From the sequence record OM258170: 47,884 bases of DNA. One strand, written 5' to 3'. Positions 3,560 through 46,653 of this stretch are shown here, one piece after another; the first letter of the stretch is position 1, and each line of letters starts with the position of its first letter. The position numbers were made by a program, and so were the translations under genes. The notes under the pieces are model-generated. The model was not told the DNA's origin. It saw only the letters and a list, made by a program, of their open reading frames with translations, and searched no databases. The stretch is from Escherichia phage ZL19.

Positions 3560-3697
3560 ATGATTTACATTCACACTTACTACACAGGTAAGTTTAACAG
3601 CGTCAAGCATGTTCGCGTGCATGATAGCTACGAGAGTGCAAAGGCGCAATGGCTTATTCTTGGCGGTGACATTAATTCATATAGAGTCGCTGAATAG
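3560..3697 (+). CDS. small ORF (45 aa)
   Basis: ATG 3560 with GGAGAGGG RBS; stop TAG inside next promoter palindrome. Confidence 0.3.
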   Translation: MIYIHTYYTGKFNSVKHVRVHDSYESAKAQWLILGGDINSYRVAE

Positions 3698-3737
3698 CAC
3701 GAATTGCTAAAGCAGTATTGGGGTAATCTGATATAGT
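3695..3737 (+). promoter_or_regulatory. palindrome-type promoter module
   Basis: TAGCACGAATTGCTA 3695-3709; TG-n-TATAGT 3729-3737; TACCCCATTGAAACGAG leader. Confidence 0.55.
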
Positions 3738-5422: not shown

Positions 5423-5500
5423 GCTCTGCTAGCTCAACAGGATAGCAGCAACGACCTTCTAAGTCGTAGGTTACTGGTTCGAATCCAGTGCGGAGCGCCA
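5423..5500 (+). tRNA. tRNA-Arg (anticodon UCU), CCA encoded
   Basis: 7-bp acceptor stem GCTCTGC/GCGGAGC, anticodon stem ACGAC/GTCGT with loop CTTCTAA, T-arm ACTGG-TTCGAAT-CCAGT, GG in D-loop; D-arm atypical (3-bp stem, long loop). Confidence 0.7.
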
Positions 5501-5740: not shown

Positions 5741-5764
5741 AGCCCTCGCTTGAGGGCTTTTTTC
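5741..5764 (+). terminator. intrinsic terminator
   Basis: AGCCCTC-GCTT-GAGGGCT hairpin followed by T-run. Confidence 0.65.
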
Positions 5765-5773
5765 GACTGCATG

Positions 5774-5802
5774 TTGACAATAATATGTAGGTGCATTAGT
5801 AT
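5774..5802 (+). promoter_or_regulatory. sigma70-like promoter TTGACA-17-TAGTAT
   Basis: Consensus -35 with 17-nt spacer, 47 nt upstream of ATG 5844. Confidence 0.6.
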
Positions 5803-5843
5803 TAACTCATCGGGGCGACCCACTAACCAGAAGGAGATTCAAA

Positions 5844-6047
5844 ATGATGACATTAAAGGCAGTATACAAAGATGGCAGTGAGCAGATTATAGAAGTTAAA
5901 AGAGTTGGCTACGCTCATGGGTCTAGACTTGTTGACTTCGTTGATTGCGATGGACCCGGCCAGTTCTTCATGGAGGACCGCGTCTTGTCTGTTTATGTGA
6001 TGAATTCAGCCGGCAGCACAGTTGGGAAATACCAACTAGCGGAGTGA
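5844..6047 (+). CDS. hypothetical protein (67 aa)
   Basis: ORF with AAGGAG RBS. Confidence 0.45.
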   Translation: MMTLKAVYKDGSEQIIEVKRVGYAHGSRLVDFVDCDGPGQFFMEDRVLSVYVMNSAGSTVGKYQLAE

Positions 6048-6056
6048 GTTGCCACC

Positions 6057-6081
6057 AAGCCCCTTAATTGGGGCTTTTTTA
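6057..6081 (+). terminator. intrinsic terminator
   Basis: AAGCCCC-TTAATT-GGGGCTT hairpin plus T6. Confidence 0.65.
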
Positions 6082-6125
6082 CGCCTGTAATATGGTATAA
6101 TCTACCATCAACAAAGGAGGATTAA

Positions 6126-6632
6126 ATGAGCAAAGCAGCATTAAAGATGGGTGAGGGAAATTTCAAGGCGCTCTACAACAAGAAGTATGGCGACATTGCT
6201 ATGGTGGCAATCAACCGCAAGTACACGCCTGAGGAAGTTTTTGACTTCGCTGTTCGATACTTCTCTTGGGCAGAGAGTGAGGCAATCAAGGCTATTGAGA
6301 CGGCAGCATTCCAGGGGGTTGTTGGTGAAAGCCTCGTACATAAACCGCGAGTATTCACCTTGACGGGGCTTGCGCTCTTCATGGGTGTTAATATCAATAG
6401 ATTCGCTCGCTGGCGCACTGAGGCTGGATACTCTGATGTTATGGAATTCATTGATAACGTAATCTACGAGCAGAAATACCAACTTGGCGTTGCAGGCATT
6501 ATCAACTCCACCATCGTTGGTAAAGAGCTTGGCATTGATAAGCCACAGGAGATTACCATCAGTAATAACTCTACAGCTAACGACGTTGATAGCATGAAGG
6601 AAGCACTGGAATCTGTGATTGGTAAATTATAA
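6126..6632 (+). CDS. terminase small subunit (putative)
   Basis: Directly upstream of TerL; motifs TLTGLALFMGV and GVAGIINSTIVGKELG resemble small-terminase family. Confidence 0.6.
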   Translation: MSKAALKMGEGNFKALYNKKYGDIAMVAINRKYTPEEVFDFAVRYFSWAESEAIKAIETAAFQGVVGESLVHKPRVFTLTGLALFMGVNINRFARWRTEAGYSDVMEFIDNVIYEQKYQLGVAGIINSTIVGKELGIDKPQEITISNNSTANDVDSMKEALESVIGKL

Positions 6633-6651
6633 CAATAAGAGGGTATAACAC

Positions 6652-8217
6652 ATGTCTTTAGTATGGGAAGAAATGACCATTCAGGAAAAGATGGCCGTCA
6701 AGGCGATATCAGAACACAGCTTCGAGGGCTTTCTTCGCTGCTGGTTCCAAATCACACAAGGCGAGCGATACATCCCTAACTGGCACCACAAATATCTATG
6801 CCGAATTATCGACGAGATTATAGCAGGGGAGCGAAAGGACACCATCATCAACATAGCGCCGGGTAGTGGAAAGACGGAAATCGCTTCAATTCACTTTCCG
6901 GCCTACTCTATGGTTAAGTTAAAGAAGGTTCGCAACCTTAACATCTCTTTTGCCGACTCACTGGTTAAGCGCAACTCCAAGCGCGTACGTGACCTCATCA
7001 AGTCTCAAGAATTTCAGTCACTCTGGCCATGTAAGTTTGGCACTTGCAAAGACGATGAGCTTCAGGTTCTTGATGAGAGTGGCAAGGTGAGATTTGAGTC
7101 AATCTCGAAAGCGGCTGGTGGTCAGATTACTGGTGCTCGAGGTGGGTACATAACTGAAACATATAGCGGCGCGGTTTTGCTGGATGATTTTGACAAGCCC
7201 GCCGATATGCTATCAGCAGTGTACCGCTCGAATAATCACGTAATGCTAAAGAACACGATTCGCTCACGTCGCGCTAGCTCTGTAAAAGGAAAGGCGACAC
7301 CAATAATTTCGATACAGCAGCGACTGCACGTCAATGACTCAACGTATTTCATGATGGAAGGCGGTATGGGTATCGACTTTGACTTGATTAAGATACCTGC
7401 GCTAGTTACTGAGGATTACATAGATTCGCTTCCTGACTGGATTAAAGAACAGTTTGCGGAAGACGTATTAAGCAGTGAGTGCATTGAGCGAGATGGCGTA
7501 AAGTACTACAGCTACTTTCCTAAAAAGGAGTCAGTAAACGACCTTGTTGCGATGTGGGATAGTGACCCGTACACTTTCCTTAGTCAATATCAGCAGGAAC
7601 CTGTAGCACTAGGTGGAAACCTCATTAATGTGGATTGGTTCCAGCGAATCAGCGATACTTTCAGACCTCCAGCTAAGTATGACTATAGATTCATCACATG
7701 CGATACCGCGATGACTACAAAGAGTTATAGTGACTTCTCTGTGCTTCAACTGTGGGGATATAAGGATGCTAAGATTTACCTTATAGACCAGCGTCGAGGC
7801 AAATGGGAGGCGCCTGAGTTGGAGGCGGAACTACTGGACTTCGAGAGGAAATCAAGGGCAACCAGTCAGGTAGATGGCATCCTACGAAAAATCATCATCG
7901 AGAAGAAATCATCCGGAATCGGACTTATTCAGTCGGCAGGCAGAGTGATGAGAACGCCGATAGAGCCATACGTACCTGATAACGACAAGCTAACCAGGGT
8001 AATGAGCGCACTGCCACAGATTAAGGCTGGCAATGTAGTTCTTCCAGAATCAGCGCCGTGGTTAAGCGGATTGCTCACGGAGATTGCAGCTTTTACGGCA
8101 GATGATAGCCACAAACACGATGACCAAATTGACTGTCTAACAATGGCAGTAAACCTTGTTCTCAATATCGCAGATGATCCTAAGTCCAGATTAATGCGCA
8201 TAGCGGGAATTAAATAG
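6652..8217 (+). CDS. terminase large subunit
   Basis: 521 aa, Walker A APGSGKT, C-terminal nuclease-like region, position before portal. Confidence 0.85.
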   Translation: MSLVWEEMTIQEKMAVKAISEHSFEGFLRCWFQITQGERYIPNWHHKYLCRIIDEIIAGERKDTIINIAPGSGKTEIASIHFPAYSMVKLKKVRNLNISFADSLVKRNSKRVRDLIKSQEFQSLWPCKFGTCKDDELQVLDESGKVRFESISKAAGGQITGARGGYITETYSGAVLLDDFDKPADMLSAVYRSNNHVMLKNTIRSRRASSVKGKATPIISIQQRLHVNDSTYFMMEGGMGIDFDLIKIPALVTEDYIDSLPDWIKEQFAEDVLSSECIERDGVKYYSYFPKKESVNDLVAMWDSDPYTFLSQYQQEPVALGGNLINVDWFQRISDTFRPPAKYDYRFITCDTAMTTKSYSDFSVLQLWGYKDAKIYLIDQRRGKWEAPELEAELLDFERKSRATSQVDGILRKIIIEKKSSGIGLIQSAGRVMRTPIEPYVPDNDKLTRVMSALPQIKAGNVVLPESAPWLSGLLTEIAAFTADDSHKHDDQIDCLTMAVNLVLNIADDPKSRLMRIAGIK

Positions 8218-8257
8218 CACTAATTGCTAAACATTGAGGCCACGGATGGCGTATATT
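8215..8257 (+). promoter_or_regulatory. palindrome-type promoter module
   Basis: TAGCACTAATTGCTA 8215-8229 overlapping TerL stop; CCACGGATGGC; -10 TATATT 8252-8257. Confidence 0.5.
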
Positions 8258-8645: not shown

Positions 8646-8666
8646 CCACAAAAGCTATGATAAACT

Positions 8667-8689
8667 AGCCCCTACATGGGGCTTTTTTA
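8667..8689 (+). terminator. intrinsic terminator
   Basis: AGCCCC-TACAT-GGGGC hairpin plus T6. Confidence 0.65.
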
Positions 8690-8701
8690 TTGGAGAAAAA
8701 C

Positions 8702-9970
8702 ATGGTCAAGACAGACAGCTACGCCAATATCTTTCTCGGCGGTAGTGATGGTAGTGAGATTTACGGGAGCTTGCAGAACCAGGCTCCTACAATTCTGGCT
8801 TCGCTATATGCGGACAATGCTCTGGTGCGTCGAATTATCGACACAATCCCGGAGACAGCATTGGCGGCAGGATTCCATATTGACGGCATTGATGACGAAC
8901 CTGCATTCTGGTCGAGATGGGATGATTTGGAGATGACGCAGAATATCAACGATGCCTGGTCATGGGCCAGATTGTTCGGTGGGGCTGCTATTGTCGCTAT
9001 CGTCAAGGACAATAGAGCATTAACAAGCCCCGCCAGGGAAGGCGCTGAGCTTGAAACCGTTCGCGTTTACGACCGCACTCAAGTGAAAGTTCAGACTCGC
9101 GAGGAGAATCCGCGCAACGCACGTTTTGGTAAGCCATTAACCTATCGCATCACAACTAATGAGAGCGATATGTTCTATGATGTTCATTACAGCCGCATTC
9201 ATATCATCGATGGCGAGCGAATCCCTAACGTAATGCGTCGGCAAAATGACGGCTGGGGCCGTAGCGTTCTATCCAGTGACATTCTTGACTCAATCAAGGA
9301 TTACACCAACTGTGAACGACTTGCTACGCAATTACTGAAACGTAAGCAGCAAGCGGTATGGAAAGCCAAAGGTCTGGCTGAACTGTGTGATGATAGCGAA
9401 GGATTTGGTGCAGCAAGATTACGCCTGGCCCAGGTTGACAACAATAGCGGTGTTGGTCAGGCGATTGGCATTGACGCAGAATCTGAAGAGTACAGCGTTC
9501 TAAACTCTGATATTGGCGGCATCGACGCGTTTCTGGATAAGAAGTTCGATAGAATCGTTGCTCTGAGCGGCATTCATGAAATCATCCTGAAGAACAAGAA
9601 CGTTGGAGGGGTATCATCAAGCCAGAATACGGCACTGGAGACATTCCACAAGCTGGTTGACCGCAAGCGCAATGCTGAGTTGCTCCCTATTCTTGAGTTC
9701 TTGATCCCGTTCATCGCGAACGCAGAAGAGTGGTCAGTTGAGTTTAATCCGTTGGCTCAGGAATCAAGCAAGGATAAGGCCGAGATTCTTGAGAAGAACG
9801 CAAACAGCATTGCGGCACTAATTGCGGCAGGCGCTATGGATATCGACGAGGCTCGTGATACACTACGAACTATAGCCCCAGAGGTTAAGATCAATGATGG
9901 TTCAGTAGAGACAAAGGTGACAATTAGTGAAACCAGTAACGACCCGTTGGAAGTACCCACAGACAATTGA
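8702..9970 (+). CDS. portal protein (putative)
   Basis: ~420 aa ORF after TerL; track ORF starts at TTG 8690, ATG 8702 has GGAGA RBS. Confidence 0.65.
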   Translation: MVKTDSYANIFLGGSDGSEIYGSLQNQAPTILASLYADNALVRRIIDTIPETALAAGFHIDGIDDEPAFWSRWDDLEMTQNINDAWSWARLFGGAAIVAIVKDNRALTSPAREGAELETVRVYDRTQVKVQTREENPRNARFGKPLTYRITTNESDMFYDVHYSRIHIIDGERIPNVMRRQNDGWGRSVLSSDILDSIKDYTNCERLATQLLKRKQQAVWKAKGLAELCDDSEGFGAARLRLAQVDNNSGVGQAIGIDAESEEYSVLNSDIGGIDAFLDKKFDRIVALSGIHEIILKNKNVGGVSSSQNTALETFHKLVDRKRNAELLPILEFLIPFIANAEEWSVEFNPLAQESSKDKAEILEKNANSIAALIAAGAMDIDEARDTLRTIAPEVKINDGSVETKVTISETSNDPLEVPTDN

Positions 9971-12249: not shown

Positions 12250-12266
12250 ATATTAAAGCTAAATTA

Positions 12267-12290
12267 AAGCCTCCTTCGGGAGGTTTTTTA
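12267..12290 (+). terminator. intrinsic terminator
   Basis: GCCTCC-TTCG-GGAGGT hairpin plus T6. Confidence 0.65.
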
Positions 12291-12614
12291 TTACCCATAA
12301 TCTGTTAGACTTATTATGTCTATTAACCAATCAGGAGATTAAGATGGATAGCGAATTAAGAGCAGCGCCCTAACACTTGGCGCCAGCTCTGCAGGACTTG
12401 GCTTGAGGACCGTTCACTACACGATAAAAGAGTGGGGTTCAAGATACATAGTGGAAATAGATATAACTCAACATGGAAGGGTTGGTGATTCTTCAATCCC
12501 AATTCAGGTAAGGATGGCATCTTATAAGTACTAACAAAGAGCCCACCATTGCGTGGGCTAAAAACTCGTGTATAATGAATCCGTAAACACATAACCGAAA
12601 AGGAACAACAAAGA

Positions 12615-13559
12615 ATGGCCATTAAATTTGATGCAGAACAAGCAAAAATCACCGCTCACCTCGAGCAAATGGGCGTAGAGAAAGCCGACGCCGCTGGTAT
12701 CTGGACTGTTAAGCAGCTTACCGCAACTCTGAATCGTGCTTACGAAAAAGAGTATGCAGACAATTCTGTTGTTAATATCTTCCCTGTAACCAATGAAATT
12801 CCTGGTCACGCGAAGTATTTCGAATACCCAGAGTTTGATGGTGTTGGTATCGCGCAGATTATCGCTGATTACTCTGATGACCTGCCGCTGGTTGATGCTT
12901 TCATGACCGAGAAACAAGGTAAAGTGTTCCGTTTCGGTAACGCATTCCTGATTTCTACTGATGAAATTAAAGCAGGCGCTGCAACTGGTCAGCCTCTGTC
13001 AGCTCGCAAGCAGGCACTGGCTTTCGAAGCGCACGACAACCTGCTGGATAAACTGGTTTGGTCTGGTTCCGCTCCCCACGGTATCGTAAGCGTATTCGAT
13101 CAGCCGAACATCAACAACGTTGTCGCAACACCAGACTGGAGTGCCCCGCAGAACGCAATTAATGACGTTACCGCAATGATTGACGCAGTTGAGACTTCAA
13201 CTCAGGGCTTCCATCATGTAACTGACATTCTGCTTCCGGCATCTGCCCGTCGAGTAATGCAGCGCCTTGTTCCGAATACAACTCTGAGCTACGGCGAGCT
13301 ATTCACTCGTAACAACCCAGGTATGACCATTCGTTTCATGCAGTTCCTGGACAACTACGATGGCGCAGGTGGTAAAGCTGCTCTGGCGTTTGAGAAGGAT
13401 CCGCTCAATATGTCCATTGAGATTCCAGAGGTTACCAACGTACTTCCGGCCCAACCTAAAGATCTGCATTTCCGCTACCCTGTAACATCAAAGGCTACAG
13501 GATTGATTGTTTATCGTCCGCTGACGATGGCTGTAATCAAAGGCATCACCTTTGCATAA
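12615..13559 (+). CDS. major capsid protein (putative)
   Basis: 314-aa ORF with GGAACAACAAAGA RBS, positioned after scaffold and followed by strong terminator. Confidence 0.65.
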   Translation: MAIKFDAEQAKITAHLEQMGVEKADAAGIWTVKQLTATLNRAYEKEYADNSVVNIFPVTNEIPGHAKYFEYPEFDGVGIAQIIADYSDDLPLVDAFMTEKQGKVFRFGNAFLISTDEIKAGAATGQPLSARKQALAFEAHDNLLDKLVWSGSAPHGIVSVFDQPNINNVVATPDWSAPQNAINDVTAMIDAVETSTQGFHHVTDILLPASARRVMQRLVPNTTLSYGELFTRNNPGMTIRFMQFLDNYDGAGGKAALAFEKDPLNMSIEIPEVTNVLPAQPKDLHFRYPVTSKATGLIVYRPLTMAVIKGITFA

Positions 13560-13563
13560 TAAA

Positions 13564-13588
13564 TCGCCCTCTTCGGAGGGCTTTTTTA
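13564..13588 (+). terminator. intrinsic terminator
   Basis: GCCCTC-TTCG-GAGGGC hairpin plus T6. Confidence 0.7.
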
Positions 13589-13651
13589 CGCCTGTACCAA
13601 ATGGAATTGTTGGGTTATAATCACCCAATCAGATAAACAAAGGAGACAAAG

Positions 13652-13897
13652 ATGATTAGTTTAGAACACACTGGTGCTTGCCTTATCGTTTACAAGGGTG
13701 AGAAATATTTGCCTGGTGACACTTTCGAGGTTGACGTAATTTGCGACGGCCTTAAGCGTTTAATCGCAGAGGGCAAGCTCACTATCGAAGGTGACGCCAA
13801 AACAACCAAGCAGATCGCGCAAGAAGTTATTAGCAAGAAAAAGCGCAAAGAACCGAAAACTATCTCCGAAGCTGAGACCGGTAACGAGTACAAATAA
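13652..13897 (+). CDS. hypothetical protein (81 aa, Lys-rich C-terminus)
   Basis: ORF with AAAGGAGA RBS. Confidence 0.4.
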   Translation: MISLEHTGACLIVYKGEKYLPGDTFEVDVICDGLKRLIAEGKLTIEGDAKTTKQIAQEVISKKKRKEPKTISEAETGNEYK

Positions 13898-16235: not shown

Positions 16236-16278
16236 TAGCACTTTTTGCTAAAGCACTTATTCAGCTTTACTGTATAGT
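16236..16278 (+). promoter_or_regulatory. palindrome-type promoter module
   Basis: TAGCACTTTTTGCTA 16236-16250; TG-TATAGT 16271-16278; CATCGAAACGAAATGAGAG leader. Confidence 0.55.
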
Positions 16279-20275: not shown

Positions 20276-20626
20276 ATGGCTATTGATACTTTTAATTGGT
20301 GCACTCAGATACAGGGTGGATCAGCTTCATTCAGTAATACGAACAACGTGAGAGTTGTTAGCTTTGGCAATGGCTTTGAGCAAAGAGGCACGGGTGGTTA
20401 TCGCAGCAACAAGCGTAGCTACCAGATGACTTACACCAACAAGGATTGGCGCGATGTGATGGATTTCTGCTTCAACCACATCATCACTCCATTCTTCTGG
20501 ACCACTCCGCAGGGTGACACATCAATGTTTGTGATTCAGCAGGATAGCATTAGTGTTACACCGCTCAGTAAGGAAGTTCAGACTGTAAGTATGCAATTCG
20601 TAGAAGTATTTAGTTCAATGCGTTAA
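20276..20626 (+). CDS. minor tail protein (lambda M-like)
   Basis: 116-aa ORF directly after tape measure; FGNGFEQRG motif. Confidence 0.6.
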   Translation: MAIDTFNWCTQIQGGSASFSNTNNVRVVSFGNGFEQRGTGGYRSNKRSYQMTYTNKDWRDVMDFCFNHIITPFFWTTPQGDTSMFVIQQDSISVTPLSKEVQTVSMQFVEVFSSMR

Positions 20627-20630
20627 ACTA

Positions 20631-20653
20631 AGCCCCTATGCGGGGCTTTTTTA
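20631..20653 (+). terminator. intrinsic terminator
   Basis: AGCCCC-TATGC-GGGGC hairpin plus T6; near-duplicate of 8667-8689. Confidence 0.6.
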
Positions 20654-20665
20654 TTGGAGAAATAT

Positions 20666-21421
20666 ATGCTAAGTCCAAAGTTTGAAAATCAGTTGCAAAG
20701 CCTTTTTCCTGGCGAGATTGTGACACTAATCCAGGTAGACGGAACCTCATTTGGAAGTCTCGTTTACAACTTCCACAATGAGAACATTTCATACACACCA
20801 GAAGAGATTATGCTGGCCCAGATGAATGGCGAGCCACTACCAGAGAAGACTATTACATTTCGCGGTGAAGAGTATGGTCCTAGACCTTTCGGTATCTCGG
20901 GCATCAATATGACGTCTGACGGAAAGGCCAACAAAGTTACGCTAACAGTATCAAACGTAGATCAGCGTATTAGCGCGTTGATTCGCACATACAATGGACT
21001 CGTTAAGGCCAAGGTCACTATCTGGATTACTACGCGAGACAACATCAATGAGGATGGAAGTATTGCTGATGGGGATTATCGCCGCTTTGTATACTTCATT
21101 GAGCGACCAAAGCAGGTTGACTATAAGACTGCATCATTTGAGCTAAGCAGCCCGATGGATATGGATGGAATTTACATTCCTGCACGACTTGTTCAGTCGG
21201 TTTGCTATTGGGCTTCAAGGGGGTGGTATCGTAGCGGTAATGGGTGTTCATATGCTGGTAACAGATACTTTAGCAAGGATGATGAGCCAGTTGCAGACCC
21301 TTCATTAGACTTCTGTGCAGGAACTGTTAACAGTTGCAAACTTAGATTTGGTGAGAATAATCAGTTAGATTTCGGCGGCTGCGCTGCAGCAAGTCTTCAG
21401 GCTAAAGCCAATCAATCATAA
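20666..21421 (+). CDS. minor tail protein (lambda L-like)
   Basis: C-terminal Cys cluster typical of L-like tail tip proteins; track ORF 20654 starts at TTG. Confidence 0.65.
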   Translation: MLSPKFENQLQSLFPGEIVTLIQVDGTSFGSLVYNFHNENISYTPEEIMLAQMNGEPLPEKTITFRGEEYGPRPFGISGINMTSDGKANKVTLTVSNVDQRISALIRTYNGLVKAKVTIWITTRDNINEDGSIADGDYRRFVYFIERPKQVDYKTASFELSSPMDMDGIYIPARLVQSVCYWASRGWYRSGNGCSYAGNRYFSKDDEPVADPSLDFCAGTVNSCKLRFGENNQLDFGGCAAASLQAKANQS

Positions 21422-21445: not shown

Positions 21446-21943
21446 TTACCATCCAAGAGTTAACTGTGCTTCCTTGTAAAGGTTCTCCATTTCTTCTTTC
21501 CGCTGCTTCTTGACCCTCTTCCACTCAGATAGTGTCTTTCCGCAACTGCTAGCAATCTCAACCTCTGACTTTAACGTTCCGATTAACTCATTGCATTTCT
21601 GCATTACTGATTTATTTTCTTCTTTATACTCCTCTTTAAGAATTCGCTCCATTTCGTTAAAAGCATTAATGTAAGCTTCCTTCCACTTTGCTGCCTCCTT
21701 TCCGGTAAAGCCCATTGCTAGGAATGAGAAACCATCACGTGTAATGTCATAGCAATCTAACTTCTTGTTTTGCTTGGAAATATAAGATGAGGGCCGAAAA
21801 TTAGGCTCTCTAAATTCTTCGCTACAATCAAGTCCTCGAATAGCATCAAGCACGTGCTTGTGCGACTTACCAAACTTTTCTGAAACATCCTTTGATGTGA
21901 CTGTAATGCGACCATCTTTGCCTAAAGATACTAAATCGTTCAT
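21446..21943 (-). CDS. Rha-family phage regulatory protein
   Basis: N-terminal ITVTSKDVSEKFGKSHKHVLDAIRGL matches Rha domain pattern; track ORF trimmed to ATG with AGGTAGG RBS. Confidence 0.6.
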   Translation of the reverse strand: MNDLVSLGKDGRITVTSKDVSEKFGKSHKHVLDAIRGLDCSEEFREPNFRPSSYISKQNKKLDCYDITRDGFSFLAMGFTGKEAAKWKEAYINAFNEMERILKEEYKEENKSVMQKCNELIGTLKSEVEIASSCGKTLSEWKRVKKQRKEEMENLYKEAQLTLGW

Positions 21944-22039
21944 AATATACCTACCTGGTGAGTTGATTATTTGTTTATGGAGATTCAAATATAAAACTCC
22001 TAATAGGATTTGTCAAATCTTAAAATCATAGAGGTGAAG

Positions 22040-22798
22040 ATGTTAACACCAAAAGTTAAACTGGAAATCTTCCAGCACGCAAAAGAAGTTTACCCGCACG
22101 AATGTTGCGGGGTTGTCACGCAGAAAGGTCGCGCGCAGAAATACCACAGAATCAAGAACGCCAGCAAAGACCCAGAGAATGAATTCATCCTTGATTCAAA
22201 TGAGTATGCAGACGTTCTCTTTGAGTTGGCTCACAACGAGTCAATTGTTTATGTAGTTCACTCTCATACAGGCGATGGAGCCACAACAAGACCAAGCCCA
22301 GCGGACATTTGCAGCTGCAATGAGTGCGAGATTCCTTACGTTATCGTCAGCATTCCGGAAGGAGACATGCGGATCCTTGAACCTTCAACCATGCCACTGA
22401 TTGGTCGCCCATGGGGTCTTGGTAGCTTTGACTGCTGGGAGTTGGTAATGGCATTTCACAAGAAATACGGCGTCAAACTGAATGACTACCGCGTTAATTA
22501 CCCGTGGTGGGAGAAGCGATACAATGAGAATATCTATGAAGACAACTGGATTAAGGAAGGATTTGAGCTAGTAAAAACTTCAGATATTCCTATTGGCTCA
22601 ATGATTATGATGCAGGTTCAAAGTGAGGTGACAAACCACGCCGGAATCTATATTGGCAACAACAGATTCATTCATCACCTTTATGGTAAAATGAGTTCAG
22701 TTGATATCTACTCCGATTACTGGCGAGAGCGCACTGTGCGAATCGTTCGCCATAAGGATTTACCAGAGGATGTAATTTATGACCCAGAAACTGATTGA
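22040..22798 (+). CDS. tail assembly protein (lambda K-like, JAB/MPN + NlpC/P60)
   Basis: HECCGVV and HSH motifs plus C-terminal Cys/His region; track ORF 22010 starts at TTG. Confidence 0.7.
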   Translation: MLTPKVKLEIFQHAKEVYPHECCGVVTQKGRAQKYHRIKNASKDPENEFILDSNEYADVLFELAHNESIVYVVHSHTGDGATTRPSPADICSCNECEIPYVIVSIPEGDMRILEPSTMPLIGRPWGLGSFDCWELVMAFHKKYGVKLNDYRVNYPWWEKRYNENIYEDNWIKEGFELVKTSDIPIGSMIMMQVQSEVTNHAGIYIGNNRFIHHLYGKMSSVDIYSDYWRERTVRIVRHKDLPEDVIYDPETD

Positions 22799-23351
22799 TA
22801 TTAAGTTAGGCTTGTCTCTAGGCCGCAAGTTTGGAAAGATTCACCAGATGGCAGTGAATAGCGTGCCAGAGGCTATGCGAGCGCTTTGCTCTCAGATTCC
22901 TGCATTCAAGGAGTTCATGAGCAGCCACGTTGGGCAGAACACAAGATACGCAGTCTTTGTAGATGGTAAAAATGTGAACGAGCATCAAATCTCTGATTTT
23001 AGTGCCGTTCAGGAGATACGCATCTTGCCAATCCCGCAAGGCCGAAAGTCCGGCGGTTTGTTTCAGACAATTTTAGGTGCAGCGCTTATCACGGTTGGCA
23101 TCTTCACTGGGCAGATTTATCTTGTTGGTGCTGGCGTATCTTTGGCAGCAGGTGGTATTGCCCAGCTACTCTCACCGCAGGCAACTGGATTAAAGACCCA
23201 GAACAACCAAACAAGCAACAGAGCATCTTACGCATTTGGCTCCTCTGTAAACACGGTGGCTGCTGGTTATCCGGTTTGCCTTCCTTACGGCTATCGGACG
23301 GTTGGCGGGTCTGTATTTAGTGCAGGCAGTTATAGTGAAGATATTTCTTGA
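22779..23351 (+). CDS. tail assembly protein (lambda I-like)
   Basis: 190-aa ORF overlapping K 3' end, Gly-rich hydrophobic C-terminal half. Confidence 0.6.
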   Translation: MTQKLIDIKLGLSLGRKFGKIHQMAVNSVPEAMRALCSQIPAFKEFMSSHVGQNTRYAVFVDGKNVNEHQISDFSAVQEIRILPIPQGRKSGGLFQTILGAALITVGIFTGQIYLVGAGVSLAAGGIAQLLSPQATGLKTQNNQTSNRASYAFGSSVNTVAAGYPVCLPYGYRTVGGSVFSAGSYSEDIS

Positions 23352-23408: not shown

Positions 23409-23897
23409 ATGCAAAAATTCGAGAATTACCTTTACGAGATTGATGGAAAGCTATACTGGAAGGAGGCGAGAAACAACTCGGCCAAAATAGAGTCAGAGGC
23501 TGGATTTATTCATCATTCTGGCTATAGGTATGTTAAATTGAATGACAAACAGACTTCATCTCACAGGATTCTTTGGTACTTAAGAAATGGATTCAAGATG
23601 CCACCTAAAGGCATGGAGATTGACCATATAAATGGAAACAGGCTTGACAACTCAGCTAGTAACTTACGGATTGTATCTTCATCGGTAAACTCAAAAAACA
23701 GGTCAAAAAGGTCAGATAACTCAAGCGGCGTTGCGGGAGTTGGATTTCATAAGTTAACTGGAACGTGGTGGGCTACGATATCAATAAACAAAAAGAGAAA
23801 GCACTTGGGGCTATTCGTTGATTGGTTTGAAGCAGTGTGCGCCAGAAAGAGCGCTGAGAACTTAAATGGTGAGTACACCTATAGACATGGTAAGTAA
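23409..23897 (+). CDS. HNH homing endonuclease with AP2-like domain
   Basis: EIDHINGNRLDNSASNLR HNH motif plus GVAGVGFHKLTGTWWATI AP2-like segment; free-standing between I-like and J-like genes. Confidence 0.65.
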   Translation: MQKFENYLYEIDGKLYWKEARNNSAKIESEAGFIHHSGYRYVKLNDKQTSSHRILWYLRNGFKMPPKGMEIDHINGNRLDNSASNLRIVSSSVNSKNRSKRSDNSSGVAGVGFHKLTGTWWATISINKKRKHLGLFVDWFEAVCARKSAENLNGEYTYRHGK

Positions 23898-23905
23898 AAT
23901 CAGAA

Positions 23906-23926
23906 CCCGCCTGGCGCGGGTTTTTT
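23906..23926 (+). terminator. intrinsic terminator
   Basis: CCCGC-CTGGC-GCGGG hairpin plus T6. Confidence 0.6.
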
Positions 23927-23938
23927 ATTTACTGTAGA

Positions 23939-26900
23939 ATGGCACAAATGATCAAAACAAACATGAGGCTTTGTGATATGGCTGAAGAGATTAAGATTTA
24001 TGGTGCCAAGGGTGGTAGCCAAAAGCAGCATCAACCAGTGGAGCAGGAAGATAACCTAATTTCACTTAACAAGGTTAAGGTTCTTTTGGCGGTTGCTGAC
24101 GGTGAGGTGGATCCTAACTTCTCATTGAAGGATTTATACCTTGCTGACGTTCCGGTACAAAATCAGGATGGTAGCTACAACTATGAAGGTGTTCGCGCTG
24201 AGTTCCGTGCTGGCACGCAGTATCAGGACTATATCGCCGGGCTTGACGGTGCTAACTCAGAGATTCAGGCATCCAGAGAAATCAAGAACGATACCCCGTA
24301 CATCATTGCAGTTAACAATACTCAGCTTTCAGCAATTCGAGTTAAGCTATTCTGGCCTCGACTGGTTAAGCAAGAAAGCAATGGAGACCTGAACGGAACA
24401 ACCTGCGAGTATGCAATTGACCTTTCTGTTAATGGTGGCGCTTACCAGGAATACACTCGCGGAGTTGCTAACGGAAAGACCACTACAGGTTACGACCGAA
24501 GCATTCGCGTAAACCTTCCGGCAGAATTTGATAGCGCGCTTGTTCGCATCCGTAAGATTACGCCGGATTCAACAAGTAGCACCCTGGTTAACGGTATGCA
24601 GATTACAACCTATCAGGAAGTAATTGACGCTAAATTCCGCTATCCGCTTACGGCTCTGGTTTACGTTGAGTTTGGTTCTGACTTGTTCCCTAACGGCATC
24701 CCAACAATCTCAATCAAGAAGAGATGGAAGTTGATTCAGGTTCCTACAAACTATAACCCTGAAACCAGAACTTATAGCGGCACATGGAATGGTCTATTCA
24801 AGATGGCATGGTCAAACAACCCAGCATGGGTTCTTTATGACCTAGTAACAAACCGCCGTTACGGACTTGACCAGCGAGAGCTGGGTGTAGAGATTGATAA
24901 GTGGGGCCTGTACGAAGCTGCACAATTCTGTGACCAGATGGTTCCAGATGGCAAGGGTGGCTTAGAGCCGCGTTACCTTTGCGATATGGTTGTACAGAAC
25001 AAGGTTGAGGCTTACACGCTAATTCGTGATATCTGTTCAATCTTTCGCGGCCTGACTTTCTATGACGGCGAAAAGATTGGCATCGTGGTTGATAAGCCTC
25101 GCAACCCATCTTACATCTTCACCAATGATAACGTTGTAAACGGATTGTTCAGTCGCACATTTGCCAGCGATAAAAGTCTTTACACCACGGCAAACGTTCA
25201 GTTTGATGATGTAGAGAACAACTATCAGCAGGATGTTGAGCCAGTATTTGAGCTTGAGGCTACTCGCAGGTTCGGGTTTAATCCAGTCGACCTTACGGCA
25301 ATTGGCTGCACTCGCAGAAGTGAAGCAAACAGACGCGGCAGATGGCTCCTAAAAACCAACCTGAGAAGCGAAACTATCAGCTTCACTACCGGGTTGGAAG
25401 GCATGATTCCGATGATTGGCGAGGTTATTGCAGTTAATGATGCGGCATGGTCGAGCAACTATCAGTTGAACCTTTCCGGCCGCATTGAATCAGTGCAGGG
25501 GCTACAGGTTTTTACACCGTTTAAAGTTGACGCAGCGCCGGGTGACAGAATTCTTCTTAACAAGCCAGACGGAAGCCCGGAGGCAAGAACTATTGCCAGT
25601 GTTTCGGAAGACGGCAGAACAATCAACCTTAACACTGCTTTCAGTTTTGTAGCTCAGCCAGACACTGTGTTCGCAATTGATAAGGATAACCTTGCGCTTC
25701 AGCAGTATGTTGTGACCGGGATTCAAAAGGCAGATACTGACGGCTCTGATTCATTTCAGTACACGATTACTGCGGTGGAGTATGACCCTAACAAGTATGA
25801 CGAGATTGACTACGGCGTTAATATTGTTGACCGTCCAACTTCAGTCGTAGAGCCTGATAGATTGTCGCCACCTGAGAATTTAACAGTGTCAAGCTACAGC
25901 AAGGTTGTTCAAGGATTATCAGTTGAGACGATGGTTATCGGGTGGGATAAAGCGCCATACGCTAAAACCTACAATGTTCAATGGAGGAAAGAGAATGGTA
26001 ACTGGATTAACGTACCCAGAACAGCAAGCACAGAAGTTGATATCGAAGGTATTTACGCAGGAATCTATGACGTTAGGGTTCGCAGCGTATCAGATACTGA
26101 AAACGTGTCTGCCTGGTCTGACATTGTAACGGTGTCGCTAACTGGCAAGATTGGTCGCCCATCGGCGCCTACTGTTATCACGGCATCAACAGATGAGGTA
26201 TTTGGCATCCGTGTTAAGTGGGGTTTCCCTGAAGGCTCTGGTGACACTGCTTACACTGAACTTCAGCAGGTCCCTGATAATGGTGACGGCACTTACAATC
26301 CTGATAACGCAAGTTTGCTTACGTTACTTCCGTATCCGGCATATGAATACTGGCACACTCCGATTCAGCCAGGTAAGGCTATCTGGTATCGCGCAAGATT
26401 GATTGACAGAATAGGTAATACGTCTGATTGGTCTAGTTTCGCAAGAGGCATGAGTACTGACGACGAAAACATTATCAATGATTACATCAAAGTTGATATT
26501 GAAGGCTCAGAAGGATTCAAATACCTCGAACAGAATGCGATTCAAAAGAATCAGGACATCCAGAACCAGGCAGAATCAATTCTTGAGAACGCATTAGCTA
26601 ATGACACTGATGTTCGTCGCATGACAAAGGAGAATGGCGCAAGAAAGGCGGAGTATGTTCAGGCTGTGAATCTCATAGCCGATGAAACTCAGGCGCGCGT
26701 AGAGGCTCTAACGGCCCTTAAGGCGCAGATAGATGATGAAGTTGTAGCATCGATTACAGAAGTTCAGACTGCATTAGCCACAGAGACAGAAGCAAGGACT
26801 ACTGCAGACACGACTCTATCAGCAAGACTTGGTGAAAATGAGGCGGCTTTAAACCAGAAGCTGGACGCATTCTCTAATGCCACATCGACTGGTGTGCAGT

Positions 26901-28805: not shown

Positions 28806-28826
28806 TTTGTATTCCTTAGTAAGTGT

Positions 28827-28866
28827 GTTTCGTTTCGATGGAAAGATAATACCGCATCCTTGCGAT
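28827..28866 (-). repeat. 40-bp perfect repeat (promoter -10 plus leader), copy A
   Basis: Identical to 46447-46486. Confidence 0.8.
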
Positions 28867-28888
28867 AAGTGTTTAGCAATTAGTGCTA
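28846..28888 (-). promoter_or_regulatory. palindrome-type promoter module (minus strand)
   Basis: Motif TAGCACTAATTGCTA on minus strand, -10 TATTAT 37 bp downstream, leader CCATCGAAACGAAAC. Confidence 0.5.
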
Positions 28889-29158
28889 TTAGTGAATATC
28901 CTCACAGCCAGGAATGGACTTAACATTGTAATGCCGATAAGCGAATATCAAGTTAAGAGCCTGCTCGACCGTGCATTTAAGGGCGCCAGAGATAATAAAT
29001 GAAGACTCAGTGATGTGATTTATTAACTCATTTCTGACAGGGTCGTCATCTGCTAGTAACTCTGCGCGCTTAACAAAAAGAGCGTTGTTTACCAGGATTG
29101 TCACAACCTTTTCATTGAGCTCTTTCTTCGCTTTTGCAATCTCTTTCTCGTAGTTCAT
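28889..29158 (-). CDS. hypothetical protein (89 aa)
   Basis: ORF with AAGGCGG RBS. Confidence 0.4.
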   Translation of the reverse strand: MNYEKEIAKAKKELNEKVVTILVNNALFVKRAELLADDDPVRNELINHITESSFIISGALKCTVEQALNLIFAYRHYNVKSIPGCEDIH

Positions 29159-30215: not shown

Positions 30216-30220
30216 AAAAT

Positions 30221-30270
30221 ATCTATATATATCAACCTTTTACTCTTATTATTATTATTATATATATTAC
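30221..30270. repeat. (TA)n and (ATT)n microsatellite, AT-rich
   Basis: ATCTATATATAT and 5x ATT then TATATAT. Confidence 0.8.
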
Positions 30271-31746: not shown

Positions 31747-31789
31747 TAGCACGAATTGCTAAAGACAAAATTAAAAGGCGGGGTATGAT
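31747..31789 (+). promoter_or_regulatory. palindrome-type promoter module
   Basis: TAGCACGAATTGCTA 31747-31761, -10 TATGAT 31784-31789, TACCCCATC leader. Confidence 0.55.
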
Positions 31790-39175: not shown

Positions 39176-39595
39176 ATGAATATTACAGACAAAGTTGATT
39201 ACATTGAGTTTTACCCTGGCCCGGTTAAGTCATGCCCTAAAGAGGATGATGAACAAATCTTTTGCTCTGATTGGGTTAAGTATAACTACCCAGGGATGGT
39301 ATTTTTCCACTGCGTGAATGAGGGTAAGAAAACCATTGGTCAAGCAAGAAAAGATCAGGCTAAGGGTCTCCTTAAGGGAGTGTCAGACTGTATGTTTCTT
39401 ATACCTGAATCTATCCGAGGCAAATACCCTTTCGGAGCTATAGAGCTAAAGAGAGCAGGAAAAACGCAGGCAAGCCCAGTCAGTGAGGAGCAGAAAGCTT
39501 TCCTTAAAAGCGTAATGGAATCAGGTGGTTTCTCCGCAGTCGCCTACGGCAGGGAAGGGTTCCTTGCAGCATTCAAAGAAATGATTTCAAAATAG
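39176..39595 (+). CDS. VRR-NUC domain nuclease
   Basis: PD-(D/E)xK-type core GAIELKRAG; immediately after helicase. Confidence 0.6.
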   Translation: MNITDKVDYIEFYPGPVKSCPKEDDEQIFCSDWVKYNYPGMVFFHCVNEGKKTIGQARKDQAKGLLKGVSDCMFLIPESIRGKYPFGAIELKRAGKTQASPVSEEQKAFLKSVMESGGFSAVAYGREGFLAAFKEMISK

Positions 39596-39635
39596 CACGA
39601 ATTGCTAAATGAGATTTCAAAAGATGGGGTATAGT
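39593..39635 (+). promoter_or_regulatory. palindrome-type promoter module
   Basis: TAGCACGAATTGCTA 39593-39607 overlapping stop; -10 TATAGT 39630-39635; CATCGAAACGAAACGAAG leader. Confidence 0.55.
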
Positions 39636-43280: not shown

Positions 43281-43645
43281 TAATGTGCGTAGCTTTATCT
43301 GGATGTTCAGCAACATCCGCGCTGACCGGATTAATTGGCAGCAAGCCAGAGATTAGCGCCCAGGCTGGCGCTGAGAACAATAAGGTTGGTGTTGGGTTAA
43401 CGAACAAGGTTGACTCAAGTAACTCAAGTGAAGCCACGGTTAAAGATTCTAAGGTTGGGTCACTGGATAGCTCGAGCGGGAAAAAGACTGCTGACAACTC
43501 GATTAAGGCCTCAACAATCACTGCTGAAAAGATTGAGATCACAAATAACGAATCATCAGCGCTTCCGTGGGTCGGAACAGGAGCAATGGGGTTGCTGGTT
43601 CTTATTCTCATGGCATTAATCTTAAGACGTAAAAAAGCCCCCTAA
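43256..43645 (+). CDS. unimolecular spanin (T1 gp11-like)
   Basis: N-terminal lipoprotein signal (LSGC) plus C-terminal TM followed by RRKK; overlaps endolysin 3' end. Confidence 0.7.
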   Translation: MLKWIAALVMCVALSGCSATSALTGLIGSKPEISAQAGAENNKVGVGLTNKVDSSNSSEATVKDSKVGSLDSSSGKKTADNSIKASTITAEKIEITNNESSALPWVGTGAMGLLVLILMALILRRKKAP

Positions 43646-46429: not shown

Positions 46430-46446
46430 TTTCTTTACCTTTCGTT

Positions 46447-46486
46447 GTTTCGTTTCGATGGAAAGATAATACCGCATCCTTGCGAT
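46447..46486 (-). repeat. 40-bp perfect repeat (promoter -10 plus leader), copy B
   Basis: Identical to 28827-28866. Confidence 0.8.
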
Positions 46487-46508
46487 TCTGTTTTAGCAAT
46501 TCGTGCTA
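46466..46508 (-). promoter_or_regulatory. palindrome-type promoter module (minus strand)
   Basis: Motif TAGCACGAATTGCTA on minus strand at 46494-46508, -10 TATTAT 46466-46471. Confidence 0.5.
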
Positions 46509-46653
46509 TTTCGTGCCTTTTCTATCGCCTTGAGCATAATTTCATGACTCTCAAGCAAGTCTTCGCGAAACCAGTCGCCGCAGGGCCAACCCTTTCCGCT
46601 GTAGGCGCTAATAACTTCCAGATCGAAATAATTTATCTCAGATGGTAGAAGCA

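Follow-up and report, generated by a model that had tools for sequence, protein, structure and literature searches.

We analyzed the 47,884-nt sequence of Escherichia phage ZL19 (record OM258170), hereafter the window; coordinates count from its first nucleotide, and features lie on the plus strand unless marked (−). The window represents an Rtp-like coliphage of the family Drexlerviridae, with late genes >96% identical to those of vB_EcoS-IME253 and ~90% identical to those of Rtp. Across the 8 kb between positions 6000 and 14000, it shares 99.9% identity with Escherichia phage vB_EcoS-IME253 and ~90% with Rtp (Drexlerviridae, Braunvirinae, Rtpvirus), and outside this region the relationship to IME253 is mosaic. 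A comparison of the two ends of the window detected no common sequence and hence no terminal redundancy. The genes considered here encode the small terminase subunit TerS (6126-6632, phrog_606), the portal (8702-9970) and the major head protein (12615-13559), both as annotated in Rtp and IME253, a DUF7444 protein (Pfam DUF7444, ATG at 13652) and an L-like minor tail protein (20666-21421, phrog_18), so that the labels TerS, portal, capsid and L-like, which an earlier note on this DNA had assigned from the sequence alone, hold.

Among the other features of the window is a tRNA gene upstream of the packaging genes (5423-5497, +; Rfam RF00005, 55.9 bits); a tRNA-Arg is annotated at a comparable position in related phages. 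Two copies of an AT-rich repeat, AATATATATATATATCTTCTTTCTATTATTATTATTATTATTA, are 84% identical and lie ~30 kb apart (95-146 and 30218-30260); an origin-like or pac-like role for this repeat would be a guess only. The non-coding gap between the decoration-protein and major capsid genes spans 365 nt (12250-12614), compared with 113 nt in Rtp. Its additional ~250 nt are located between a terminator (12270-12283) and a hairpin (12540-12559); downstream of them comes CGTGTATAATGAATCC, which resembles a promoter and is conserved in Rtp and Rogue1. No Rfam matches were obtained in this gap. Two further open reading frames (ORFs) match IME253 genes and take their labels from the IME253 record, namely, a Rha-like regulator between L and K, encoded on the opposite strand (21446-21988, −), and an HNH endonuclease between I and J (23409-23897, +).

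Terminator hairpins at four late gene boundaries

The earlier note had described two pairs of similar intergenic junctions, pair A before TerS (A1, 6057-6120) and after the major capsid gene (A2, 13564-13650), and pair B before the portal gene (B1, 8667-8704) and before the L-like gene (B2, 20631-20668). Both pairs are located where it had placed them. In pair A, the hairpin and its T6 tract are followed in both copies by ACGCCTGTA, a perfect TATAAT and a ribosome-binding site; in pair B, the hairpin leads into TTTTTTATTGGAGAAA and ATG.

The hairpins have stems of 6-7 bp with five GC pairs and are immediately followed, on the sense strand, by T6 tracts (6075-6080, 8683-8688, 13582-13587 and 20647-20652). 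They start 9-21 nt past the preceding stop codon at A1, A2 and B1 and 3 nt past it at B2. Together with an additional hairpin at 5741, they fold with −12.2 to −13.9 kcal/mol (z −2.6 to −4.0 against shuffled sequences). The A1 terminator (6057-6080), with the stem AAGCCCC/GGGGCUU and the loop UUAAUU (−13.1 kcal/mol, z −2.6), was missed by the first terminator scan and listed by a second scan of our own. The A2 terminator (13564-13596) is formed by GCCCUC-UUCG-GAGGGC (13566-13581; −12.2 kcal/mol, z −3.2), with ACGCCTGTA as the tail of the T-tract. The hairpin at 5741-5771, the resident and ancestral terminator of the TerS junction, reads AGCCCTC-GCTT-GAGGGCT, followed by T6 and the tail CGACTGCA (−12.7 kcal/mol, z −3.1); its stem, GCCCTC/GAGGGC, is that of A2.

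The orthologous boundaries in Rogue1, T1, TLS and Klebsiella Webervirus carry hairpins as well, with stems that are unrelated or compensatorily changed; before L, for example, Rogue1 has AGACCC/GGGTCT where the window phage has AGCCCC/GGGGCT. What is conserved in the junction hairpins is their structure and not their sequence. In the GenBank record of T1 (AY216660), rho-independent terminators are annotated at the same boundaries, several of them abutting a ribosome-binding site. By every feature that can be assessed in a sequence, the junction hairpins are predicted to be rho-independent terminators. Mapped transcript 5′ or 3′ ends were not found for any Drexlerviridae phage in the searchable literature, so that terminator and promoter activities, including termination efficiencies and transcription start sites, are predictions throughout.

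Predicted terminators fused to ribosome-binding sites

At B1 (8660-8704), an A-rich lead-in, ATAAACT, precedes the hairpin AGCCCC-UACAU-GGGGCU (8667-8683), and the T6 tract runs into ATT, the Shine-Dalgarno (SD) sequence GGAG (8692-8695) and the portal ATG (8702). B2 (20624-20668) opens with the stop codon TAA, followed by ACT, the hairpin AAGCCCC-UAUGC-GGGGCUU (20630-20648), T6, ATT, the SD sequence GGAG (20656-20659) and the ATG of the L-like gene (20666). The B1 hairpin folds with −13.9 kcal/mol (z −4.0), the A-tract pairing with the U-tract, and that of B2 with −12.2 kcal/mol; the Rtp orthologue of B2 has a different loop. In the pairwise alignment that the earlier note had proposed as a check, B1 and B2 are identical at 33 of 38 positions, with the similarity reaching upstream into TAAACTA. 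Their local alignment score of 58 ranks first among the 66 pairs that can be formed from 12 terminator junctions of the window, and none of 3000 shuffles reached it.

The B1 junction is conserved in all close relatives despite a different upstream gene. At the portal boundary of Rogue1 and T1, TTTTTATTGGAG likewise comes after a hairpin, and TLS shows the arrangement in looser form, with an unrelated stem in each case. Before L, the fused arrangement is found in Rtp and Rogue1, and a terminator plus promoter in T1, TLS and Webervirus. T1 has the fused arrangement at several boundaries, for example, TTTTTTTATTggagaaatcaaaATG after the capsid gene.

Much of this arrangement is not specific to the family. 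Within the window, TTTTTTATTGGAGAAA occurs three times at up to three mismatches against 1.1 expected, and the exact 16-mer is present in at least 120 unrelated IMG/VR viral contigs, behind many different stems. Among the matches listed, 90 of 121 have both a hairpin of −8 kcal/mol or lower immediately before the 16-mer and a start codon 2-7 nt after it. The 16-mer is therefore generic, and pair B represents a generic fusion of a terminator to a ribosome-binding site. The recurrence of the same architecture in unrelated viruses is what would be seen if the members of each pair were unrelated by descent and short consensus elements (terminator hairpin, U-tract, −10 and SD) made any AT-rich coliphage junctions look alike, and the AGCCCC/GGGGCT stem, which occurs four times in the window, points the same way. 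However, B1 and B2 have the stem and the upstream TAAACTA in common, well beyond the generic part, and their score of 58 compares with 39 or less for all other pairs. Because TAAACTA can pair with the U-tract, part of this additional similarity may be functional; ancient copying from one of the two boundaries to the other is plausible.

In these junctions, which we denote type B, the U-tract continues directly into ATT-GGAG-AAA-N4-ATG. Given that the SD sequence and start codon are joined to the U-tract, the downstream gene is expected to be translated only from read-through transcripts. The terminator would thereby scale down downstream expression, and the U/A-rich context would provide a strong ribosome-binding site.

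Predicted terminator-promoter junctions

In pair A, the terminator is followed by a predicted promoter, a leader and a ribosome-binding site. At A1 (6081-6128), the spacer ACGCCTG leads into TAATAT (6088-6093), a weak −10-like hexamer, and then into an extended −10 element, TGG+TATAAT (6093-6101), the SD sequence GGAGG (6116-6120) and the TerS ATG (6126). A2 (13597-13654) comprises TATAAT (13616-13621) preceded by G at −14, the leader CACCCAATCAGATAAAC, the SD sequence GGAG (13642-13645) and the ATG of the DUF7444 gene (13652).

Both −10 hexamers match TATAAT at six of six positions. A1 has the TG at −15/−14 (TGG-TATAAT), and A2 (GGT-TATAAT) has the G at −14 without the T of TGn. A sigma-70 scan found no −35 hexamer with at least four of six matches at 16-18 nt in either junction, which is why a generic scan calls neither promoter; the −35 position falls in the T-tract at A1 and in TGTACC at A2. 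Extended −10 (TGn) promoters are a known class of sigma-70 promoters, and A1 would belong to it, with TGG-TATAAT and no recognisable −35, whereas A2, with G-14 only, would differ. The distance from the T-tract to TATAAT is 15 nt at A1 and 28 nt at A2, so that the two junctions cannot work identically. We regard A1 and A2 as intrinsic terminators, each followed by a predicted host sigma-70 promoter.

Five lineages have kept, upstream of TerS, a TAnAAT hexamer preceded by TGn or G-14, at a constant 15-16 nt from the T-tract: TGG-TATAAT in the Rtp-like phages, TGC-TATAAT in relative L006, TGG-TACAAT in Rogue1, TGG-TAAAAT in T1 and AGC-TATAAT in TLS. At A2, TATAAT and the leader are 95% identical to the orthologue in relative L003 and are kept in relative L008 and in Rogue1, where an HNH gene replaces the stretch from the capsid terminator to the −10 hexamer. 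This HNH gene, located between the capsid and DUF7444 genes, ends inside the A2 TATAAT, with its stop codon within TTATAA.

The right half of pair A recurs elsewhere in the genome. The core gGTATAATc-ACC-ATCA-AAC...GGAG is the one that follows each copy of an ATAGCAC-N5-GCTAAA repeat, and a degenerate −10/discriminator motif derived from A1 and A2 has six sites in the window against 0.72 expected, including three promoters associated with this repeat. Since the core is common to ~18 promoter sites in the genome, the similarity in the right half of pair A reflects a promoter family and not a private duplication. One antisense match to the motif, GTTATAATTTACCAATCA (6616-6633, −), at the TerS/TerL boundary, overlaps the region of the TerL ribosome-binding site on the other strand and is probably a chance match.

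The 21-nt direct repeat aaATAGCACnnnTTGnTAAAA, to which no function was assigned, has been reported previously for TLS, T1, Rtp and Rogue1 (PMC11447400). In the window, ATAGCAC-N5-GCTAAA occupies ~18 sites on both strands, with 27 matches at up to two mismatches against 4.9 expected; the sites include 2914-2930, 3695-3711, 8215-8231, 16236-16252, 31747-31763, 39593-39609 and 46492-46508 (−). The repeat lies 19-22 nt upstream of a gGTATAaT hexamer with the conserved leader tACCcCATC(g/a)AAAC, and its palindromic core (TAGCA-N5-TGCTA) has its centre near −43, a position like that of a class II activator or operator site. A sigma-54 reading of the repeat was discarded on inspection, the CAC-TTGC spacing being 3 nt where 5 are needed and AG replacing GG. 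The window's most extended duplicated promoter module, which exceeds both pair A and pair B in length, consists of this repeat, the −10 hexamer and the leader: a 65-nt repeat, 91% identical, at 28826-28890 and 46446-46510, where it forms minus-strand promoters of two different genes. Only the −10/discriminator/leader core links the promoters with the repeat to A1 and A2, in which the terminator stands upstream in place of the repeat; the 21-nt form ATAGCACnnnTTGnTAAA is absent from the 60 nt upstream of either pair A promoter.

We also considered a −10 element embedded in a hairpin, given that in both copies an inverted repeat (ATGGTA/TACCAT and TTGGGT/ACCCAA) holds TATAAT in its loop, with a compensatory TTGAGT/ACTCAA in Rtp. 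This candidate was rejected, as the repeats are broken in relatives L003, L004, L006 and L007 and the folds are close to those of shuffled sequences (z −0.55 and −0.11).

Origin of the similarity within pair A

A1 (6073-6089) and A2 (13580-13596) share an exact 17-mer, GCTTTTTTACGCCTGTA, which at up to three mismatches has three matches in the window against 0.21 expected; none of 100 shuffles gave three. The third site (43622-43638, −) was dismissed as a mere bidirectional terminator between convergent genes, without a promoter module. Further downstream, TATAAT is followed by ACAAAGGAG in both copies (6096-6101 and 6111-6119 in A1, 13616-13621 and 13637-13645 in A2). The colinear alignment of A1 with A2 has 51 of 72 positions identical (71%), with indels of 13 and 6 nt. 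Their local score of 39 is the second highest of the 66 pairs and was not reached in any of 3000 shuffles; it is barely above those of other terminator pairs (37, 35 and 32).

That other pairs score nearly as high, and that ACAAAGGAG at up to one mismatch occurs at about chance frequency (14 occurrences against 12.3 expected), again fits similarity by convergence alone. Against it, the exact 17-mer runs 9 nt past the U-tract and is accompanied by colinear blocks. The earlier note had stated that similarity limited to generic terminator features would refute its reading. Several components are indeed generic when taken alone, but the 17-mer in pair A, like the stem and TAAACTA in pair B, goes beyond them. 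The paralogy of A1 and A2 is suggested by colinear short blocks. Recent gene conversion between A1 and A2 was considered and is unsupported: identity between them is 69-71% inside a genome and 68-69% between genomes, hence recent copying or gene conversion is not indicated, and the relationship appears to be old and not maintained in this way.

A proposed promoter design overlapping the terminator

A histogram of the distances from hairpin to −10 hexamer for 120 predicted terminators in six genomes was too noisy, owing to the definition of the stem end, and a table of orthologous junctions was used instead. This table revealed a recurrent design, in which a hairpin is followed by T6-8, 6-8 nt ending in CTG or GTG, and TAnAAT. 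Hairpin and hexamer are separated by a constant 13-14 nt, so that the −35 position coincides with the hairpin loop or 3′ arm. In T1, the design reads TTGCGC-17-TATAAT before J, with the spacer ...TTTTTTTTCGCCTG, and TTGCGC-17-TAGAAT before L; in TLS, it reads TTGCGC-17-TACAAT before J, TTGTGC-17-TATAAT before L and, in a weaker version, TTGCGC-17-CAATTT before TerS. The TTG lies in the hairpin at the J and L junctions of T1 and at the J and TerS junctions of TLS. The window has this design before its J-like tail gene (23902-23941), where the hairpin AACCCGCC-UGG-CGCGGGUU is followed by TTTTTTATTTACTG and TAGAAT; the hairpin at the I/J boundary and the 13-14 nt spacing to the −10 hexamer are conserved in Rtp, Rogue1, T1 and TLS.

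At the corresponding position, A1 has the weak TAATAT (6088-6093), and in A2 the hexamer has decayed to TACCAA, without the final T; both have a better TATAAT further downstream. The tail ACGCCTGTA is accordingly best read not as a separate signal but as the putative spacer and −10 edge of a terminator-overlapping promoter used at the TerS, L and J junctions of the family; the tail is retained at A1 beside the stronger downstream −10 and is apparently a relic at A2. We also examined ACGCCTGTA as a widespread terminator-tail signal. The form GCTTTTTTWCGYCTGYA has at least 120 IMG/VR matches, and among the matches listed 112 of 120 lie after hairpins; however, GCTTTTTT already selects terminators, so that by our estimate this number of matches is about that expected by chance for the size of the database and weighs neither for nor against a wider role of the motif.

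The reuse of terminators within a genome is also seen in relatives. In T1, an identical hairpin, CCCGCCTTGCGCGGG, is located before both L (22793-22816) and J (24972-24994), and in TLS, CCCGCCTTGCGCGGG precedes TerS (8721-8739) and, with a one-base insertion, J (24855-24876). Paralogous terminator-promoter modules are thus a habit of the family and not specific to the window.

The fixed geometry could represent a selected device that couples termination to re-initiation, in which RNA polymerase released by the terminator stays on the DNA and starts anew from the overlapping promoter. The −35 position would then be taken by the hairpin loop or 3′ arm, the U-tract would serve as the spacer, and the −10 hexamer would follow 13-14 nt past the hairpin. 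If this were the case, transcripts would be reset at module boundaries, inserted cassettes would be insulated and the mRNA trimmed, and transcriptional flux would be kept up through the 20-kb late block with no antiterminator. We consider such coupling improbable.

Alternatively, the tail ACG(C/T)CTGTA or the whole module could be the site of a phage or host factor, acting either as a DNA site for an activator or repressor or as an RNA antitermination or attenuation signal. The phage does encode HTH regulators, transcription must somehow pass the many terminators inside the late block, and (C/T)CTG(C/T)A is conserved upstream of TerS in Rtp, T1 and TLS together with its distance from the T-tract, though there it lies in the promoter spacer. 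However, the motif is anchored to the terminator and not to the −10 hexamer (15 versus 28 nt), has degenerate counterparts at other junctions with this design (GTAGCTG, TTTACTG and TTACATG) and is present in just two or three copies per genome. Furthermore, the searched sequence has no Rfam match above the gathering threshold other than tRNA, and the segments downstream of the pair A terminators are no more stable than shuffled sequences and have no conserved structure, the inverted repeats around TATAAT included. We rate a dedicated factor site as the least probable of the explanations considered. The earlier note had also proposed a common attenuation mechanism. This applies only trivially, in that each of the four junctions carries a predicted intrinsic terminator; there is no sign of a dedicated attenuator or antiterminator, a special attenuation mechanism is not indicated, and no feature of the junctions calls for a new mechanism.

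An accessory gene cassette at the TerS junction

The A1 terminator is part of a moron-like cassette (5772-6089), which combines a promoter and an ORF of 67 aa with this terminator (6057-6076) and, as the right tail copy, TTTTTTACGCCTGTA. The promoter, TTGACA-17-TAGTAT (5774-5802), scored 10/12 in the promoter scan and is near the sigma-70 consensus; the ORF (5844-6047; phrog_3909, function unknown) was found in only eight phage records. The cassette, of ~335 nt, lies between two copies of the terminator tail GGGC-T6/7-(A)CGnCTGyA, the left one belonging to the hairpin at 5741-5771. Alignment with close relatives places the indel exactly within the TerS junction: the cassette is present in Rtp, IME253, JulesPiccard and GaoY1-9D and absent from relatives L003, L004, L006, L007 and L008, and in L003, L004, L007 and L008 the hairpin located at 5741-5758 in the window directly abuts the TerS promoter. 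In JulesPiccard, duplicated terminators flank the cassette as they do in the window, and in GaoY1-9D (Nouzillyvirus), it is flanked by a perfect ~33-nt duplication spanning the whole terminator. This duplication of an entire terminator at the TerS junction also argues against pure convergence as the source of the similarity between junctions, which on the evidence from both pairs we consider unlikely.

The cassette has the features by which morons are recognized, that is, its own promoter and terminator, a single accessory ORF between conserved genes and presence or absence among colinear relatives. Morons of lambdoid and HK97-like phages are reportedly promoter-gene-terminator units inserted between conserved genes, and the cassette resembles them in its own promoter and terminator, small ORF and variable presence. 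The classical definition does not include a flanking duplication of the resident terminator tail, which is present here, and because the phage is virulent, the prophage-expression rationale of morons is absent.

The earlier note had taken the reused junctions as a sign of modular exchange. Exchange is directly supported by the cassette indel, the GaoY1-9D duplication, the insertion of HNH genes at the same junctions in relatives and the swapped junction types, orthologous gene boundaries having different types in different lineages; much of the similarity itself, however, goes back to functional convergence or a family-wide design, and not to recent reuse. A stronger version, in which the junctions are recombination linkers selected for homologous exchange of modules between co-infecting T1-like phages, would account for the mosaic boundary located exactly at B1, where the upstream genes differ and the same TGATAAACTAGCCCC... 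follows, for the cassette indel within a shared tail, for the HNH insertions at junctions and for the mosaic relationship of the window to IME253. Yet transcription and translation functions suffice to explain the conservation, the stems turn over completely between subfamilies, which is unfavourable to a linker role, and exchange may be a by-product, insertions being tolerated only between genes. We find selection for a linker role very improbable.

Comparison with known phage systems

The late region of T1 has been described as a series of "transcriptons", units that have terminators on their flanks and RpoD promoters within (Roberts, Martin and Kropinski 2004, as cited in PMC11447400). T1 and the window share the boundaries at which rho-independent terminators divide this region, namely, those preceding TerS, L and J and the one following the major capsid gene; RpoD-type promoters stand behind some of these terminators, and others directly abut a ribosome-binding site (TTTTTTTATTggagaaatcaaaATG). 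The two phages differ in the type used at particular boundaries: after the capsid gene, T1 has the type fused to a ribosome-binding site and the window has a terminator plus promoter, and before L, the situation is reversed. In contrast to the layout shared with T1, the pairwise paralogy and the TerS-junction cassette are confined to some Rtp-like and related phages.

The position of A2 directly after the most highly expressed structural gene, with downstream genes that need read-through or re-initiation, recalls the terminator T-phi of T7, a partial terminator that follows the major capsid gene, gene 10. T7 uses its own RNA polymerase, and no promoter is fused to T-phi, whereas A2 has a predicted host-type promoter within 35 nt.

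Probable transcription-unit boundaries in the late gene block

The reading we favor, and hold to be likely, is that the four sites are boundaries of transcription units in the late gene block of a T1/Rtp-like phage, which covers packaging, head and tail, and that their similarity stems from shared constraint, old paralogy and duplication of the terminator tail at TerS. Each junction would open, just past a stop codon, with a Rho-independent terminator made of a GC-rich hairpin of 6-7 bp and U6. Before the portal and L-like genes, this terminator would run directly into the ribosome-binding site, as set out above for type B. Before TerS and after the capsid gene (type A), it would be followed by a host sigma-70 promoter that relies on a consensus −10 with no usable −35 and that would restart transcription with a short conserved leader and an SD sequence. 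The similarity between junctions would then have three sources: functional constraints shared by all of them, together with a promoter core used genome-wide; old paralogy between junctions; and duplication of the terminator tail at TerS upon insertion of the moron. The layout of terminators with promoters or ribosome-binding sites has already been described for the T1/Rtp-like family, and in this respect the finding is ordinary, though tidy.

Its value is mainly one of annotation. For phage engineering, the junctions are suggested as tolerated insertion points that come with ready-made insulation. The TerS cassette, with its duplicated terminator tails, is a clean example of the entry of accessory genes into T1-like genomes at boundaries between a terminator and a promoter. 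The "repeats" would be regulatory punctuation, neither mobile elements nor a new RNA, and the late block would be better annotated as a string of short units with terminators between them, some of these units having host-type promoters of their own, than as one operon.
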